From positions 1-42,610 of IMG/VR virus record IMGVR_UViG_3300020042_004769: a stretch of DNA of 42,610 nucleotides; one strand, given 5' to 3'. The notes below the pieces were generated by a model. That model had not been told where the DNA came from and did no database searches. It worked only from the letters and a program-made list of their open reading frames with translations. This document shows, piece by piece, positions 16,605 to 40,456 of the stretch (within the stretch, counting starts at the first letter, position 1; each line of letters starts with the position of its first letter). The position numbers and the translations under genes were made by a program. The DNA is from a virus (Duplodnaviria > Caudoviricetes).

Positions 16605-17591
16605 ATGGCTCACGAAGTTGAAACGATGGCTTACGCTAATGAGACCCCTTGGCATGGCCTTGGCACCCCCGTCGCAGACAACCTGACCCCCGCCCAGATG
16701 CTTGACGTAGCTGGCCTTGACTGGAAAGTTCAGAAGAAGGCCTTGGTCGTCGACGAACTTGACCACGTGCTAAACAGCCACTACGCTTTGGTGCGCGACA
16801 CAGACAGCAAGATCCTTGGCATCTGCGGCAACGAATACCAGCCCACGCAAAACAGCGACGTCTTTGAGTTCTTTGACAAGTTTTGCAAAGCCGGCGATAT
16901 GAAGATGGAGACTGCCGGCTCTCTTTGCGGTGGCAAGCGCGTTTGGGGCCTTGCTAAGATTAACGGCGGCTTTATGCTGGGCGGCAAAGACGAAGTCGAA
17001 GGCTACATCTTGCTTGACAATCCACACATTTGGGGCCGTAGCTTGCAGATCTTGTTTACGCCAATCCGCGTAGTTTGCAATAATACGTTGACAGCGGCTC
17101 TTCAGAACAATACAAACAAAGACAACACTTTCCGCATGTCTCACGATCGCGCGTTTGACGACGAGATCAAGCAGACTGCTGCAGAAAAAGTTGGCCTTGC
17201 AATGAAGTCGCTTGACGTGTTCAAGCAGCAAGCAGAGTTCTTGTCCACGAAACGCGCCAAGGACCAGCAAGTCATGGAGTTCTTCTCCAAGCTCATCAAT
17301 CCGGACCAATATCAAGCAGCCTTGGTTGCTTCAGAAGATGATTCAGTCAGCCGTTCAGATCTTGGCCGTACAGTCAACCGTCTGATCGACATCGTGCAAA
17401 CCCAACCAGGCGCTGATCTGAAGACGTCAGCAGGTACTTGGTGGGGAGCATTCAACGCCGTGACGTACTACTACGACCACGTCGCTGGAACTGACCAAGA
17501 CAAGCGTCTGACAAGCGCGTGGTTTGGCTCAGCCGCAACTCGCAAGCGCCACGCACTTGACTTAGCCGTCGAGTTTGCCGAAGCAGCATAA
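16605..17591 (+). CDS. DUF932/DUF945 family phage/plasmid protein
   Basis: PWHGLG, AGLDWKV, YQPTQN, ETAGSLCGGKRVW, TPIRVVCNNTL, GTWWGAFNAVT motifs; ATG at 16605 after the purine-rich leader. Confidence 0.88.
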   Translation: MAHEVETMAYANETPWHGLGTPVADNLTPAQMLDVAGLDWKVQKKALVVDELDHVLNSHYALVRDTDSKILGICGNEYQPTQNSDVFEFFDKFCKAGDMKMETAGSLCGGKRVWGLAKINGGFMLGGKDEVEGYILLDNPHIWGRSLQILFTPIRVVCNNTLTAALQNNTNKDNTFRMSHDRAFDDEIKQTAAEKVGLAMKSLDVFKQQAEFLSTKRAKDQQVMEFFSKLINPDQYQAALVASEDDSVSRSDLGRTVNRLIDIVQTQPGADLKTSAGTWWGAFNAVTYYYDHVAGTDQDKRLTSAWFGSAATRKRHALDLAVEFAEAA

Positions 17592-17596
17592 AACCT

Positions 17597-17610
17597 GGGG
17601 CTTCGGCCCC
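17597..17610 (+). terminator. GC hairpin with C(UUCG)G tetraloop, no U-tract
   Basis: GGGGC-TTCG-GCCCC just after the DUF932 stop. Confidence 0.45.
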
Positions 17611-17635: not shown

Positions 17636-18490
17636 ATGGCAAACGCCAGAGGAAAGTCCATCGACAATACCCACCTGAGCATTGATCAGGCGGAAGAGCG
17701 CGGTTTCATTCATCGCGACTACATTGCCCACTGTCTACGTTGGACCCATGTGGCCAAGTGGATGGGCAACCCTAAGCATCGTAAGGATTGCAAGTTGCTT
17801 GACATTGGCTGCGGCAAGGACGTACCACTGGCAAAGATGCTTATGACCAGCCGCATGGCTTCAGATGGCCTTGACTACATCGGCATTGACTACAACAAGC
17901 TTGAGATGCCTAAGGCCTTTGAGAACACTAAGTTTAAGCCAACCTTGATTGGCAACGTGGCCTTCCCAGATTGCCAGCTGCCGCATGACAAGTTTGACGT
18001 GATCACAAGCTTTGAGGTCCTTGAACACGTTGAGCCGCTGCATGCCTACAAGATGCTCGAAGGTATCCGCGATCGCTTGGCCCCTGAAGGCGTAGCATTC
18101 TTGTCCACGCCAGTCTATGACGCAAAGGTTGGGGCAGCAGATAACCACGTCAACGAGATGACCTACGAAGTAATGCAGTTGATGCTCCACAAGGTAGGCT
18201 TGGAAGTTGACGCCCACTACGGCACTTTTGCCTCCATTAAAGACTACAAGGAAATGATTGAAAAAGATGACCTCGATGCAGTGTTCAGCCGCCTGCGTGA
18301 TTACTACGACAGCAACTACTTGGCAACTATCTTTGCTCCGCTCTATCCCCACCGATCACGCAATGTGCTTTGGCGAGTCAAACTGCCGAAAAGCCAAGAG
18401 CTGTTTACCCCTGGCAAGTTCTCAGACCTCACAAAGCCGCTCTCCAGCAGTGACGCTTGGCAGCCCCTCTTTGACTATCTTGGAGAATGA
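17636..18490 (+). CDS. Class I SAM-dependent methyltransferase (small-molecule/UbiG-like type)
   Basis: LLDIGCG motif I, YIGID motif II, FDVITSFEVLEHV, LAPEGVAFLSTP; RBS AGGAG. Confidence 0.88.
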   Translation: MANARGKSIDNTHLSIDQAEERGFIHRDYIAHCLRWTHVAKWMGNPKHRKDCKLLDIGCGKDVPLAKMLMTSRMASDGLDYIGIDYNKLEMPKAFENTKFKPTLIGNVAFPDCQLPHDKFDVITSFEVLEHVEPLHAYKMLEGIRDRLAPEGVAFLSTPVYDAKVGAADNHVNEMTYEVMQLMLHKVGLEVDAHYGTFASIKDYKEMIEKDDLDAVFSRLRDYYDSNYLATIFAPLYPHRSRNVLWRVKLPKSQELFTPGKFSDLTKPLSSSDAWQPLFDYLGE

Positions 18491-18882
18491 TCATGGACAT
18501 GTTTGATATGGTTTCCGATTTTCATAAAAAGTTTGGATTAGAGCCTACTGATCAGCCAGACTTTCCGGTAGAAGGAATCTGGAAGCTTAAAAATTCGCAC
18601 ATGCAAGAAGAGCTTGATGAGATACGGGCAGCCGCAATCAACGGTGATCTTGAGGAGTACTTTGACGGCCTGATTGACCTTGTCTACGTAGCTCTTGGTG
18701 CGGCGTACCTAGCAGGCCTACCCTTTGAGCAAGGGTTCTTGCGGGTGCATCAAGCCAACATGAAAAAAGTGCGCGCTTTAAGGCAAGAAGATAGCAAACG
18801 CGGGTCTACCTATGATATAGTGAAACCTGCAGGATTCGTGGCCCCAACGCTTACGGACCTCATTAGAAAGGAGAAAGAATGA
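18487..18882 (+). CDS. MazG-like all-alpha NTP pyrophosphohydrolase
   Basis: VSDFHKKF, QEELDE, DGLIDLVYV, VHQANMKK, IVKPAGF motifs. Confidence 0.85.
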   Translation: MIMDMFDMVSDFHKKFGLEPTDQPDFPVEGIWKLKNSHMQEELDEIRAAAINGDLEEYFDGLIDLVYVALGAAYLAGLPFEQGFLRVHQANMKKVRALRQEDSKRGSTYDIVKPAGFVAPTLTDLIRKEKE

Positions 18883-19871
18883 AAGGCATTATTGTCATCG
18901 ATGGTTGCGACGGCACCGGAAAAACAACTCTTGCTAAAGCTATTTGCGACAAGCATGATGGCGTCTACATTCACAACACGTATCGCTGGCCTACAAAGAT
19001 GCCGCTGTATCACACAGCTGCTTTGCATCGCGCGTTAAAGCTTGCTCGTACACGTCTTGTAGTGATTGATCGCTTGTGGATGAGCGAAGCCATCTATGCA
19101 GAGGTCTACCGTAATGGCAGCCCTTGGCCTAACATGGGACGCATGATTGATCGCATCATCCGTAAGGTCGGAGGTATGTACATCTTGGCGCAATCTCCAC
19201 AAGGCCATCAAGAAAAGTTTGAGCAGCTGAAGACAGAGCGCAAAGAGATGTATGACAACGTGGACCCAGTGCGCAAGCGCTTTGATCAGTTGTTTGAAGG
19301 AGGCTTTGCTGGCCATGATAGCGACTACGCGCAGCAGCTGTCTGTGTTTGGCATGCGCTTGCGCGATGACGTTCTGCCCTATCGATACGACATTGAAGGT
19401 ACCAACCTTGATGTCTACATTGACATGGCGATGTCAGTCCTTGATTCTCGCATGACTAAGCAATACGCGCCAGCCCTTGACCTGCGTACAGAAAACTTTG
19501 CAGGACATGTGCATGAGGCCAACTTTATCTTTGTTGGAGACAAGGCTAACAGCAAGTTTAGAGCAGTCAGCTGGCCCTTCTATGACTTTGGCAATTCAAG
19601 CGAGTTTTTTGCTAGTGCCCTGCATGAGTTGACATTTGACGAGACAAGAGCCGTCTACATCAATGCTAATGATCAGGATGGTATTAAGCACATTGACAGG
19701 TGCCTTTCAGCAAAGCCGTATCTGCATTTGATTTGTCTTGGCAATGAGGCTCATGCGTCAGTGCATTCGCTCACTCGCCGCATCTCCAGCGTCTATCATC
19801 CGTCATACGCAAAGCGGTTTAACAAAGCCGGTGAATTTTTGCTTCAACTTAAGGAGGCTCTCAATGGTTAA
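18879..19871 (+). CDS. dNMP kinase (thymidylate-kinase-like) fused to a uracil-DNA-glycosylase-like domain
   Basis: N-terminal IVIDGCDGTGKTT P-loop and VIDRLWMSEAIY. C-terminal FVGD..WPF..YINA..ICLGNEA..YHPSY follows the UDG superfamily motif order. Confidence 0.75.
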   Translation: MKGIIVIDGCDGTGKTTLAKAICDKHDGVYIHNTYRWPTKMPLYHTAALHRALKLARTRLVVIDRLWMSEAIYAEVYRNGSPWPNMGRMIDRIIRKVGGMYILAQSPQGHQEKFEQLKTERKEMYDNVDPVRKRFDQLFEGGFAGHDSDYAQQLSVFGMRLRDDVLPYRYDIEGTNLDVYIDMAMSVLDSRMTKQYAPALDLRTENFAGHVHEANFIFVGDKANSKFRAVSWPFYDFGNSSEFFASALHELTFDETRAVYINANDQDGIKHIDRCLSAKPYLHLICLGNEAHASVHSLTRRISSVYHPSYAKRFNKAGEFLLQLKEALNG

Positions 19872-20670
19872 CACGACATTTAACACGACAAACATGAACT
19901 GGCAAGGCTTGCTAGATATTGTCATGCGCAGCGGAAGCGAGACAAGCCCACGTGGCAAAAAGACAAAAGAGCTCTTAGGCTTTAAGTCAATGATTGACAT
20001 GAACCAGCCCGTCATCACCATCAAGGAACGGGCTCTTGGCTATAAGTTTATGGCGGCCGAAGCAGCTTGGATTATGTCAGGCGACAACCGCGTTAGCACC
20101 ATCGCCCGTTTTAGTAAGCAGATCAGCAACTTCTCTGACGACGGCATCTTTTTCTATGGAGCCTACGGCCCAAGAATACGCGACCAGCTGGCTCACGTTG
20201 TTCAGTCGCTATTGGCTGATCCAGACACACGGCAAGCGGTCATCACGATATGGCGTCCAAACCCTCGTGCTTCAAGAGACATCCCTTGCACTATCAGCTG
20301 CCAGTTTGTGATTCGCTCCGGTATGCTTCATTGCTTTATGAACATGCGTTCCTCTGACGCTTGGCTTGGCGTGCCGTACGACTGGTTTAACTTCAGCATG
20401 CTGTCAGCAGGTATTGCTTTGCTTCTTCGTCAAAAAGGTTTAACTGTTCAGCTTGGCTCCCTGCACTTTTACGCAGCAAGTCAGCACCTGTACGAAGAGA
20501 ACTGGTTCAAGGTAGATGCTTGCTTAAACGGAGAGATCCTAGGCGACTACGCCCCAATCGACCTTGAATACTTTGATGACTACGACCACTTAGTTAATCA
20601 CTTGTGGACACTGGCAGGTGGCCATGTGCACAACGGTTTTCTTAAGGAATTATCAACATGGAAAGGATAG
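19864..20670 (+). CDS. Thymidylate synthase-family protein, dCMP-type (Asp at the specificity position)
   Basis: AAEAAWIMSG, YGPRI, TRQAV, DIPCT (catalytic Cys), MRSSDAWLGVPYD, SQHLYE; RBS AAGGAGG before ATG 19864. Confidence 0.88.
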   Translation: MVNTTFNTTNMNWQGLLDIVMRSGSETSPRGKKTKELLGFKSMIDMNQPVITIKERALGYKFMAAEAAWIMSGDNRVSTIARFSKQISNFSDDGIFFYGAYGPRIRDQLAHVVQSLLADPDTRQAVITIWRPNPRASRDIPCTISCQFVIRSGMLHCFMNMRSSDAWLGVPYDWFNFSMLSAGIALLLRQKGLTVQLGSLHFYAASQHLYEENWFKVDACLNGEILGDYAPIDLEYFDDYDHLVNHLWTLAGGHVHNGFLKELSTWKG

Positions 20671-21164
20671 GCAAACATGAATACTTTTCGCAACTGGCTT
20701 TACTCGTTAGTCGAAGGAGTACTTGCGCTAGGAGGAGTGTGGGCTGCGTTCTCATATCTCATCGTGGGCATATTCTCGGTACTGGTTATAACGGGGTGCC
20801 TCGTGGTCATACTCATTGCACTGACGTTCGCTGTCCCGGTGCTGCTTTGCCTTCGGGCACTGGCCTGGATGTATGTGAAGCTATTCATGCGGAACAAAAC
20901 GCCTTACTCCAATGTAAGGACGTTGAACAAATAGACACGGCTTACGTAACTGCTATGCCTTGCATGACTTGTACAAAGCTTTTGCTAAACACAAGCTGCA
21001 AGCGCATAGTCTACGTTGAACCATACCCGCATGACGCTGCAAAACAACTCTGGATTAAAAATGGACGTATCATCTTATCAACCGCCGAAGCACTTTCCCA
21101 ATCTGTTAGTAGCGAAGAGGATCGCAATCGACTGCGAGACGCGCGACCCGAACTTAATGACTAA
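20658..21164 (+). CDS. dCMP deaminase family (Zn-dependent)
   Basis: RSTCARRSVGCV, GTGYNG, HAEQNAL and PCMTC motifs. Confidence 0.9.
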   Translation: MERIGKHEYFSQLALLVSRRSTCARRSVGCVLISHRGHILGTGYNGVPRGHTHCTDVRCPGAALPSGTGLDVCEAIHAEQNALLQCKDVEQIDTAYVTAMPCMTCTKLLLNTSCKRIVYVEPYPHDAAKQLWIKNGRIILSTAEALSQSVSSEEDRNRLRDARPELND

Positions 21165-22923
21165 AGGCCCTGGAGGAGTACGCGGAGATGGCTACATCGT
21201 GGGATTTTCTGTCGCAACTGATGATGGATTTGCTGAGTACTATCCTGTCCGTCATGCAGCAGGTGGGAACCTTAACCCTGACAATGCGTTTACTTGGCTA
21301 AAGGACATGCTGAAGACAGACATTCCTAAGATTGGCGCCAACCTGCCTTACGACCTTGAATGGTTGCTGACAGAAGGCGTCAAGGTAGGAGGTCCTAAGT
21401 ATGACGTGCAGATTGCCGAGCCTTTGCTGGATGAGGACCGCATCACCTACAAGCTTGATGCCCTGGCCCAGTCTTACCTTGGAGAGACAAAGGACGAGAC
21501 AGAGCTGATTGCAGCAGCTGTTCGCCGCGGTATCCACCCGAGCAAGGTCAAAGAAAACCTTTGGCAGTTTCATGCTGCTGAGGTGGCCCCATACGGACGC
21601 AAGGACGCAGACCTGCCTATCCGCATCTTTGCCCAACAAGAAGTCTTGCTGCACGACGAGAAGCTGTGGGAAGTCTTTGAGATGGAGACGCAGCTAGTTG
21701 ATGTGATTGTGGCCATGCGCCAACGTGGGGTCCCAGTCGATCTTGACCGGGCCCACAAGGTTAAGGCTCAACTACTTGATGAGCAAGGCAAGCTGACGGA
21801 GCAACTCAAGAAGGTTGCAGAGCGGGATGTAGACATCTGGTCTGGTGACGATATACAGGCAGCCAGTGACGCATTGAAGCTGGATTACCCAAAGACTGAA
21901 AAGGGGAATGCTAGTTTTCCCGGTGAGTTTCTTGAAGCTAGTGAACATGAATTTTTCTCCTTAATATCCAGGATCCGGAAGCTTGACCGGGCTGGTGGTG
22001 TATTTATCGATAGCAAAATCATTCAGATGGAAAAAGATGGCAAAATTTACCCAACATTCAGACAGGTTCGTGACGATCGGGGTGGCACAAAGTCCGGGCG
22101 TTTTGCGTCGTCTAATCCGAACATGCAGCAAGTACCAGCTAGAGATCCAGTGCTGGCTCCTCTTATCCGAAGCATCTTTGTGCCTGAGGATGGGTGTCAG
22201 TGGGGCGTCTTCGATTACTCGCAGCAAGAGCCTCGTGTCACGGTTCACTACAGCTATTTGCGTGGTTTTCCTGGTGCTGAGATTGCTCGCAATAGGTATC
22301 TTGACGACCCTGATACTGACTACCATCAGCTCGTTGCTGACATGGCTGGAATCACTCGTAAAAACGCGAAGACGCTAAATCTTGGACTGGCTTACGGTAT
22401 GGGTGCTGCCAAGGCTGCTACCCAACTGGGCCTGCCGCCAGCAGAGGCCAAGCGAGTCTACGAGCAATACCATGCCAACGTGCCGTTTATTAAGGCTCTT
22501 GGCGAGGAATGCACGCGGATTGCAACCAACAGGGGCTACGTCAAGACGTTCTTAGGTAGACGCAGACGGTTCCAGTTGTTTGGACCACCTAAATACACGC
22601 TAGGTCTGATCCCATTAAAGAAGGACTTGGCTGAGGAAAAGTACGGGCTGCCGTTAAAACGATATTTTGTGCACAAGGCCATGAACGCCGTCATACAAGG
22701 ATCTTCAGCTGACATGATCAAGATGGCCATGATCAACCTGTTCAAAAAAGGCGAAGTACCTCATCTGACTATCCACGATGAATTAGACTTTAGCGTAAGG
22801 GACTTGGATCACGCCAGATTGATCCGCCAGGAGATGTTGTCATGTGTAGACTTGGTCGTGCCATTAAAAGTAGATTGCGATCTTGGACCCAGCTGGGGAG
22901 AAGCGGTGGAGGTGAAGCTATGA
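21061..22923 (+). CDS. polA: DNA polymerase family A with 3'-5' exonuclease
   Basis: Exo IAIDCET, NLPYD; SGRFASSNPNMQQVP; motif A DYSQQEPR; motif B RKNAKTLNLGLAYG; IQGSSAD; motif C IHDEL. Start at 21061 is inferred. Confidence 0.93.
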   Translation: MDVSSYQPPKHFPNLLVAKRIAIDCETRDPNLMTKGPGGVRGDGYIVGFSVATDDGFAEYYPVRHAAGGNLNPDNAFTWLKDMLKTDIPKIGANLPYDLEWLLTEGVKVGGPKYDVQIAEPLLDEDRITYKLDALAQSYLGETKDETELIAAAVRRGIHPSKVKENLWQFHAAEVAPYGRKDADLPIRIFAQQEVLLHDEKLWEVFEMETQLVDVIVAMRQRGVPVDLDRAHKVKAQLLDEQGKLTEQLKKVAERDVDIWSGDDIQAASDALKLDYPKTEKGNASFPGEFLEASEHEFFSLISRIRKLDRAGGVFIDSKIIQMEKDGKIYPTFRQVRDDRGGTKSGRFASSNPNMQQVPARDPVLAPLIRSIFVPEDGCQWGVFDYSQQEPRVTVHYSYLRGFPGAEIARNRYLDDPDTDYHQLVADMAGITRKNAKTLNLGLAYGMGAAKAATQLGLPPAEAKRVYEQYHANVPFIKALGEECTRIATNRGYVKTFLGRRRRFQLFGPPKYTLGLIPLKKDLAEEKYGLPLKRYFVHKAMNAVIQGSSADMIKMAMINLFKKGEVPHLTIHDELDFSVRDLDHARLIRQEMLSCVDLVVPLKVDCDLGPSWGEAVEVKL

Positions 22924-40036: not shown

Positions 40037-40456
40037 ATGCTACTTGAAACCCCCATGTCCTTTACTTACGCCTCATTGGACGAGGCCTTCCCAACTGTAG
40101 ACTGCTGTCACGAGCCTTTGGGCTCACGCGTGATTGTTCAAGTCCGCAAAGCCAAGAACCAGACGGCTGGCGGTATCTACATCCCTGAAGAAGCAAGAAA
40201 AACAGAAGCCAGCAATACGCAGATTGCCAAAGTTGTGGCGGTCGGAACATTGGCTTACAAGAATCGGAACACCATGGAACTGTGGCCTGAAGGCTCCTGG
40301 TGTGAAGTTGGCGCCTACGTCCGTGTGCCTAAATACGGCGGTGATCGTTGGACAGTAAAGTCCGGTGACGAGGAGATCGAATTTGTGATGTTCAATGACC
40401 TGGACGTTCTTGCCAAGGTCACTGGGGATCCCACTGCGATCCGTGCGTTTATCTAA
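40037..40456 (+). CDS. groES: Co-chaperonin GroES (Cpn10)-like
   Basis: EPLGSRVIV, TAGGIYIPE mobile loop, AKVVAVG, EVGAYV..KYGG, NDLDVLAKV. Confidence 0.88.
   Translation: MLLETPMSFTYASLDEAFPTVDCCHEPLGSRVIVQVRKAKNQTAGGIYIPEEARKTEASNTQIAKVVAVGTLAYKNRNTMELWPEGSWCEVGAYVRVPKYGGDRWTVKSGDEEIEFVMFNDLDVLAKVTGDPTAIRAFI

Follow-up and report, generated by a model that had tools for sequence, protein, structure and literature searches.

Comparison with Described Systems

In phage T4, cytosine is substituted at the nucleotide level: its 5-hydroxymethylcytosine (5hmC) pathway relies on the dCTPase gp56, the deoxycytidine monophosphate (dCMP) hydroxymethylase gp42, the kinase gp1 and glucosyltransferases. 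A five-gene cassette leading into the DNA polymerase gene polA of virus record IMGVR_UViG_3300020042_004769 (42,610 bases, analyzed whole and called the window hereafter) appears to follow the same principle, and its thymidylate synthase (TS) homologue carries the gp42 residues. The window differs from T4 in having a TS of a MilA-like lineage, a PRA-PH pyrophosphatase without a gp56 match, an S-adenosylmethionine (SAM) methyltransferase and a kinase fused to a uracil-DNA glycosylase (UDG)-like domain. We propose that this cassette replaces cytosine with 5hmC and that the methyltransferase, which resembles HEN1, methylates the hydroxymethyl oxygen, which would yield 5-methoxymethylcytosine. Judged from sequence, the probability of this reading is about 0.55.

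Other described systems share parts of the cassette. The 5hmC carbamoyltransferase module (Yang et al. 2021, PMC8670742) has in common the PRA-PH, TS and deaminase context, the TS clade and, in locus L070, the position of the modifying gene; the window has a SAM methyltransferase in place of that transferase, with a methyl ether as the predicted product. Xp12-type 5-methylcytosine (5mC) phages with a 5mC-selective deaminase (bioRxiv 2024.12.05.627091) also place a TS with Asp177 (E. coli ThyA numbering) beside a deaminase, a PRA-PH enzyme and polA, but the Xp12 TS has Asn143 and Pro147, a dihydrofolate reductase (DHFR) gene lies two genes away, and Xp12 has no homologue of the methyltransferase or of the kinase-UDG fusion. 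The 5-hydroxycytosine (5hoC) synthases of RB69, DLP3 and RL38JI (PMC13326640) share an acidic residue 143 and Asp177 with the window TS; they have Asn169 and accompanying glycosyltransferases, whereas the window has Asp169. HEN1/Hen1, a small-RNA 2'-O-methyltransferase, resembles the window enzyme in its catalytic domain alone, at 19% identity, and the context of the latter is dCMP modification, not RNA. Finally, Stenotrophomonas phage AXL3 (gp27-gp31) and Pseudoxanthomonas phage PW916 contain the five genes of the window in unchanged order (methyltransferase 33% and TS ~50% identical). Both are siphoviruses, in contrast with the podovirus-like window, and in the published text their genes are assigned to thymidylate synthesis.

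A neighborhood of PRA-PH, TS with Asp177, deaminase and polA has been described for cytosine-modified metavirome contigs (bioRxiv 2024.12.05.627091; PMC8670742). The pathway as a whole is therefore not new, since this core is published. An earlier note, made from the DNA letters alone, had matched the cassette to no described pathway; this holds for the methylation step and the UDG domain of the fusion, and not for the core. No description of these two elements, or of methoxymethylcytosine in phage DNA, was found in a mostly open-access literature, where an earlier in-silico mention is possible. Iyer et al. 2013 (NAR) reportedly surveyed such operons computationally.

The Thymidylate Synthase Homologue

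The TS residues were read from an alignment with E. coli ThyA, T4 gp42 and the Xp12 TS. In ThyA numbering, Asp177 is diagnostic of dCMP use, an acidic residue 143 of hydroxymethylation and Asn169 of hydroxylation; acidic 143 correlates with hydroxymethylation without proving it, and is also found, together with Asp177, in 5hoC synthases, of which every tested one has Asn169 (PMC13326640). The window TS, which has the TS fold, contains Asp139, Cys142 (the catalytic Cys146 equivalent), Thr143, Asp165 and Asp173 at ThyA positions 143, 146, 147, 169 and 177. T4 gp42 is identical at all five, while ThyA itself has Leu143, His147 and Asn177. Because of Asp177, the enzyme is predicted to be dCMP-specific and, because of Asp143, to be of the hydroxymethylating type. 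Its closest solved structures in a PDB search are CMP 5-hydroxymethylases (E 7e-24), and it is 30% identical to T4 gp42 over 125 aa and 29% to the Xp12 TS. The window TS is thus very likely to make 5hm-dCMP for a 5hmC-based cytosine substitution.

In a quick version of the TS tree, the TSs of two loci with a carbamoyltransferase (L070 and L079) sit within the clade of the window TS (support 96); Xp12 and ThyA attach by long branches, and their placement was not used. The carbamoyltransferase class acts on 5hmC, not on 5mC (PMC8670742). The Xp12 DHFR, used as a single query, gave no match in the window, estimated to be 76% complete, or in the retrieved loci L001-L169.

The other assignments that were tried do not fit these residues. 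A dUMP hydroxymethylase, the annotation used for PW916, was rejected on account of Asp177, and a 5hoC (5hodCMP) synthase on account of Asp169, where Asn169 would be expected. A canonical TS would have Asn177 and His147, where the window has Asp and Thr, and an Xp12-type dCMP methylase would have a non-acidic residue 143, as the Asn of Xp12. The synthesis of a non-canonical pyrimidine, put forward in the earlier note, is well supported. The note had offered an O-methylated 5-hydroxymethyl- or 5-hydroxy-pyrimidine; the 5-hydroxymethyl product of the cytosine type is retained, while 5-hydroxy/5-methoxy and uracil-based products are disfavored, since the TS is predicted to be dCMP-specific, Asp143 is present and the D169N hydroxylase signature is absent.

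The Methyltransferase

The methyltransferase model has a class I fold (mean predicted confidence, pLDDT, 89.5), and its sequence-atlas clusters are 95-100% viral. A profile of 112 diverse members has HEN1 as its best PDB match (E 2.5e-12), followed by UbiG and other Hen1 proteins. HEN1 is a metal-dependent enzyme. Its conserved site consists of R701, E796, E799, H800, a TP-containing motif VI and H860, and the E796 position is rare among small-molecule enzymes (PMC1397878). Once an offset of 8 residues in the PDB chain is taken into account, R701, E796/E799/H800 and the TP motif pair with R35, E127/E130/H131 and T158-P159 of the window enzyme. The Arg of motif X and the EhhEH of motif IV, with its leading Glu, are present; of the HEN1 motif VI, TPNxE(F/Y)N, only S-T-P is retained. 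The active-site set of the family is formed by R35, E127, E130, H131, S157-T158-P159, H171 and E174, and these residues, counting T158-P159 of the triplet, are kept in 111-112 of the 112 sequences. The motif IV of DNA N4/N6 amino-methyltransferases, (D/N/S)PP(Y/F/W/H), is not present in the enzyme. The methyltransferase is likely a hydroxyl O-methyltransferase working like HEN1, as predicted from these residues, and not a member of the HEN1 family. Its gene shows dN/dS values (nonsynonymous to synonymous substitution rates) of 0.04-0.11 against six relatives.

Immediately upstream lies a DUF932 gene (window 16605-17591), which is found at this place in many, not all, relatives. A G+C-rich hairpin with a TTCG loop (window 17597-17610) separates it from the methyltransferase ribosome-binding site and has a terminator-like score on the minus strand only.

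Linkage to Predicted Hydroxymethylases

Seeding with the methyltransferase profile retrieved 373 viral loci, and linkage was counted in the best 80. A TS adjoins the methyltransferase in 65 of these 80, and all 65 carry the hydroxymethylase signature D143/C146/T-or-S147/D169/D177. The neighborhood survey thereby speaks against an unlinked methyltransferase in relatives, which the earlier note had named as a reason to abandon its proposal, and the suggestion of a methylated product made there is well supported. In 14 of the 15 TS-less loci, the contig ends within 1.5 kb on one side; the fifteenth is L127. Many loci are near-copies, and the independent evidence for linkage resides in three TS lineages rather than in the counts. 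Indeed, identity to the window TS is only 20-28% for 22 of the 65 linked TSs, of which 15 have motifs of the T4 gp42 type and a different gene order; among the distant ones sampled in the quick tree, six group with T4 gp42 (support 99) and two represent a third lineage. The methyltransferase family amounts to 323 clusters at 50% identity (E up to 1e-30). In GTDB genomes, the gene occurs at 13 loci only, all on contigs of uncultured bins, with a TS in 8 of them and the signature in 7/7 readable TSs; 4 of the loci end early, and the remaining one, L182, is a genuine local exception.

The reverse search, seeded with the TS, gave 65 viral loci: 52 with the methyltransferase, 7 ending within 1.5 kb upstream and 6 truly without it. 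The cluster gene order is unchanged in all 52 and is identical in AXL3, PW916 and two Manatee Spring phages, so the cluster is more than a chance arrangement. Of the six loci lacking the methyltransferase, two have a carbamoyltransferase, three a pyridoxal phosphate (PLP) enzyme with two unknown genes, and one nothing recognized. In L070, the carbamoyltransferase takes the position of the methyltransferase, and the methyltransferase never occurs together with a carbamoyltransferase or the PLP enzyme in loci L001-L169. The PLP cassettes (L071:3742-6989, L075:3948-7045 and L084:2380-6662) combine a D143/D177 TS with the two unknown genes and a PALP-type PLP enzyme replacing the methyltransferase, and are a candidate for a second undescribed 5hmC hypermodification.

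Further variants of the cassette were seen. Two loci, L208 and L211, have the TS module without the methyltransferase in the retrieved DNA; in the former (L208:1942-4292), a C5 DNA-methylase-like gene and an unknown 359-aa gene lie within the cassette. A C5 DNA-methylase-like gene is likewise present at L127:8135-9762, together with a TylF-like O-methyltransferase. At L184:6004-9678, a methyltransferase homologue is accompanied by a gene for a SAM-synthetase N-terminal domain two genes downstream, a dUTPase and a T4-type hydroxymethylase. The cultured T7-like pelagiphage HTVC200P (L005:5487-6765) contains the kinase and, under a thymidylate synthase annotation, a TS with D143/D177, and for this reason likely carries modified cytosine. 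HTVC119P has matching hits (H7 and H61).

Other Cassette Enzymes and Genomic Context

The features of the cassette are collected in Table 1. Coordinates and strand bear out the earlier description of five tightly overlapping genes leading into polA: the overlaps within the run are 4, 4, 8 and 13 bases, and the last gene extends ~100 bases into polA. The polA frame is open from 21016, with the ATG at 21061 as the likely start, and its N-terminal stretch is common to the window and relative L041. Pfam and PHROG searches back the methyltransferase, pyrophosphatase, kinase, TS, deaminase and polA assignments. Across the cluster genes, dN/dS against the six relatives is 0.02-0.22, apart from one saturated value for the UDG domain, which indicates that the genes are under purifying selection.

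Table 1. Cassette genes and domains, with positions in the window.
Feature	Position	Strand	Support
SAM methyltransferase, 284 aa	17636-18490	+	Methyltransf_23, E 8.6e-15
PRA-PH/MazG-like nucleotide pyrophosphohydrolase, 131 aa	18487-18882	+	PF01503, E 2.7e-12; PHROG 671
Kinase::UDG fusion, 330 aa	18879-19871	+	
Deoxynucleoside monophosphate (dNMP) kinase domain, aa 1-190	18879-19448	+	PHROG 761; YorR/thymidylate kinase matches
UDG-superfamily domain, aa 193-330, family-4-like fold	19455-19871	+	Predicted structure
Thymidylate synthase homologue, 268 aa, predicted dCMP hydroxymethylase	19864-20670	+	Pfam E 2.2e-21
dCMP-deaminase-family enzyme, 168 aa	20658-21164	+	Pfam E 4.7e-21
Family A DNA polymerase (polA) with 3'-5' exonuclease	21061-22923	+	Pfam, PHROG

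The PRA-PH/MazG-like enzyme is a putative dCTPase, which would remove dCTP and supply dCMP. PRA-PH is enriched in cytosine-modified contigs (PMC8670742 supplement 2), and a homologue lies near the Xp12 TS. The kinase domain probably phosphorylates the modified dCMP. In the model of the fusion (pLDDT 91.8), residues 1-190 superpose on thymidylate kinases (Z 13.9) and residues 193-330 on UdgX (Z 12.2, root-mean-square deviation 2.8, 134 aligned) and T. maritima UDG (Z 11.9). This predicted structure confirms the UDG fold, and with it the glycosylase-fold domain of the earlier note, for a stretch that has no Pfam or PHROG match. The domain has a conserved G-[DE], Asn262 and His307-Pro308; Asn262 and His307, which we take to be the catalytic residues, are each present in 38/41 sequences. 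It was found in 53 of 58 TS-seeded loci with the kinase. A further match is to one domain in the structure of a phage family-A polymerase with a modified template (PDB 9qhs, Z 10.3); given this likeness, the UDG domain may bind rather than excise.

The deaminase, which shares 53% identity with AXL3 gp27 and 25% with its Xp12 counterpart, presumably feeds dUMP to host dTMP synthesis. Five relatives that are 98-100% complete each have one TS, with no second TS or ThyX, and none of them has a GT1 or GT2 glycosyltransferase (PF00534, PF00535), a search that divergent phage enzymes would escape; for these reasons, dTMP is likely obtained from the host. The T4 beta-glucosyltransferase, as query, had no match in the 76% complete window either, in agreement with the earlier observation that no glycosyltransferase is visible.

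The window, which spans the entire virus record, is podovirus-like: terminase, portal, ejection proteins, primase, helicases and polA are encoded (Pfam, PHROG). Close variants occur among freshwater metagenome contigs from four studies; the contigs of four runs compared with the window gave nothing beyond close variants, and no RNA dataset is listed among those with the sequence. A co-chaperonin GroES-like gene (window 40037-40456) lies amid the head genes.

Restriction Resistance and Site Avoidance

AXL3 carries the same TS signature along with the five genes. Of 37 enzymes, only TasI and Tru1I, both with A/T-only sites, cut its DNA, and the modification was left unexplained by the authors (PMC7504290). 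This resistance points to modification of C or G and is not specific evidence for methylation. For PW916, the passages found of the publication report no digestion test.

Site avoidance was computed with a codon-shuffle null. Composition was corrected for, and so was a parallel depletion of A/T-only non-palindromes in the window (0.64). A/T-only palindromic hexamers occur 11 times against 25.3 expected, and four A/T-only restriction sites 2 times against 14.0; the cassette-less relative DSL-LC04 is without such depletion (50 vs. 45). As a control, Salmonella phage PMBT28 (L213), whose DNA is presumably A-modified, has 11 G/C-only palindromes vs. 172 expected (0.06), which indicates that the method responds. 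In Providencia phage Kokobel2 (L214), G/C-only palindromes are at 0.58 of the expected number, and both phages have a PurA/PurZ-like gene. Site avoidance may flag which base is modified.

Proposed Pathway and Alternatives

In the proposed pathway, the PRA-PH enzyme would convert dCTP to dCMP, from which the TS homologue, with methylenetetrahydrofolate and water, would form 5hm-dCMP; the fused kinase would phosphorylate this product and polA would incorporate the modified nucleotide. The methyltransferase would add the methyl group of SAM before or after incorporation, and the deaminase would turn part of the dCMP into dUMP, from which the host would make dTMP. Excision of uracil or deaminated modified cytosine by the UDG domain is the weakest step. 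The benefit would be protection against restriction, the hydroxyl being capped by a methyl in place of a sugar. The analysis shows the genes, folds, residues, linkage and exchange of the methyltransferase slot; all enzymatic products, the methylated one included, we infer from these.

Several observations weigh against 5-methoxymethylcytosine. A VIA structure search ranks ChlM (Z 18.2), PDB 4htf (17.7) and others above HEN1 (15.8), and HEN1 is not among the Foldseek top rows listed for the model; neither search discriminates the methyl acceptor. ExxEH is also found in UbiG, and the pairing of H171, invariant in the family, with HEN1 H860 was made by eye, beyond the range aligned by the hidden Markov model. 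The 80 loci surveyed are the best of the 373, with ~20 near-copies among them, and L127 holds the methyltransferase, pyrophosphatase and kinase-UDG fusion with no TS in the 4.9 kb downstream. In the MetaGPA data (PMC8670742, supplement 2), Methyltransf_23 is not significant (27 vs. 1436 contigs, corrected p 1). The avoidance of A/T-only sites was chosen after the data were seen. It is weak in eight close relatives (28 vs. 37.5, p 0.07), and neither T4 nor a set of 19 distant cassette loci (365 vs. 338) shows it; it deserves little weight.

The phage DNA may contain plain 5hmC, with which the resistance of AXL3 is equally compatible, the methyltransferase acting instead on RNA ends, as in Hen1/Pnkp repair, on a protein or on a pathway by-product. 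The HEN1-like site is indeed that of an RNA 2'-O-methyltransferase, the TS module runs without the methyltransferase in HTVC200P and L067, and on a 306-kb metagenome-bin contig (L182:5926-6876) the 6 kb to each side of the methyltransferase contain no TS. Yet the methyltransferase tracks hydroxymethylases over three TS lineages with differing gene orders, and in L070 its slot is filled by an enzyme class that modifies 5hmC, which makes this explanation unlikely. Methylation of the exocyclic N4 would lead to N4-methyl-5-hydroxymethylcytosine, equal in mass to the O-methyl product. Several N-methyltransferases with the shared fold differ from HEN1 by no more than 1 Z unit in the structure search, and linkage to 5hmC synthesis is equally compatible with this target; it is nevertheless improbable, given that the motif IV EhhEH stands against the (D/N/S)PP(Y/F/W/H) of base amino-methyltransferases (PMC1397878) and that the top profile matches are O-methyltransferases.

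It is very improbable that the deaminase moves hydroxymethylated cytidylate to the uracil series, with thymine partly replaced by 5-hydroxymethyluracil or 5-methoxymethyluracil. Some TS-linked phage deaminases do act on 5hmdCTP (bioRxiv 2024.12.05.627091), and the five near-complete relatives lack a second TS or ThyX; against this, ThyX is present in AXL3 and several loci, the similarity to the Xp12 deaminase is low, and enzymes with A/T-only sites cut AXL3 DNA, which resists those whose sites contain G/C (PMC7504290). An ordinary auxiliary dTTP supply, as annotated in AXL3 and PW916, is compatible with the gene names (dCMP to dTDP), and a 5hoC/5-methoxycytosine route with acidic 143 and Asp177; either is highly doubtful beside the dCMP use indicated by Asp177, the retained Asp169 (PMC13326640) and the resistance of AXL3 DNA (PMC7504290). 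An Xp12-type 5mC phage, whose TS would make 5m-dCMP for the deaminase to convert to dTTP, has the same core gene set (bioRxiv 2024.12.05.627091) and is scarcely credible in view of Asp143/Thr147, the missing DHFR match and the low TS identity.

Implications for the Phage Family

If 5-methoxymethylcytosine is indeed made, it would be a new natural DNA base and a sugar-free cap for 5hmC, relevant to restriction evasion, and the unexplained restriction resistance of AXL3 would be accounted for. A SAM-dependent transferase specific for 5hmC could also serve as a 5hmC labelling tool, and two cultured phages, AXL3 and PW916, carry the cassette. The family being large (373 viral loci, 323 clusters), the base could be widespread in lakes and oceans. 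We give even odds to the broader view that a widespread aquatic and soil phage family, with podo-, sipho- and T4-like members, builds its genomes with 5-methoxymethylcytosine through an O-methyltransferase of HEN1-like type that has been redirected from RNA ribose to a DNA base, and that AXL3 already carries this base.

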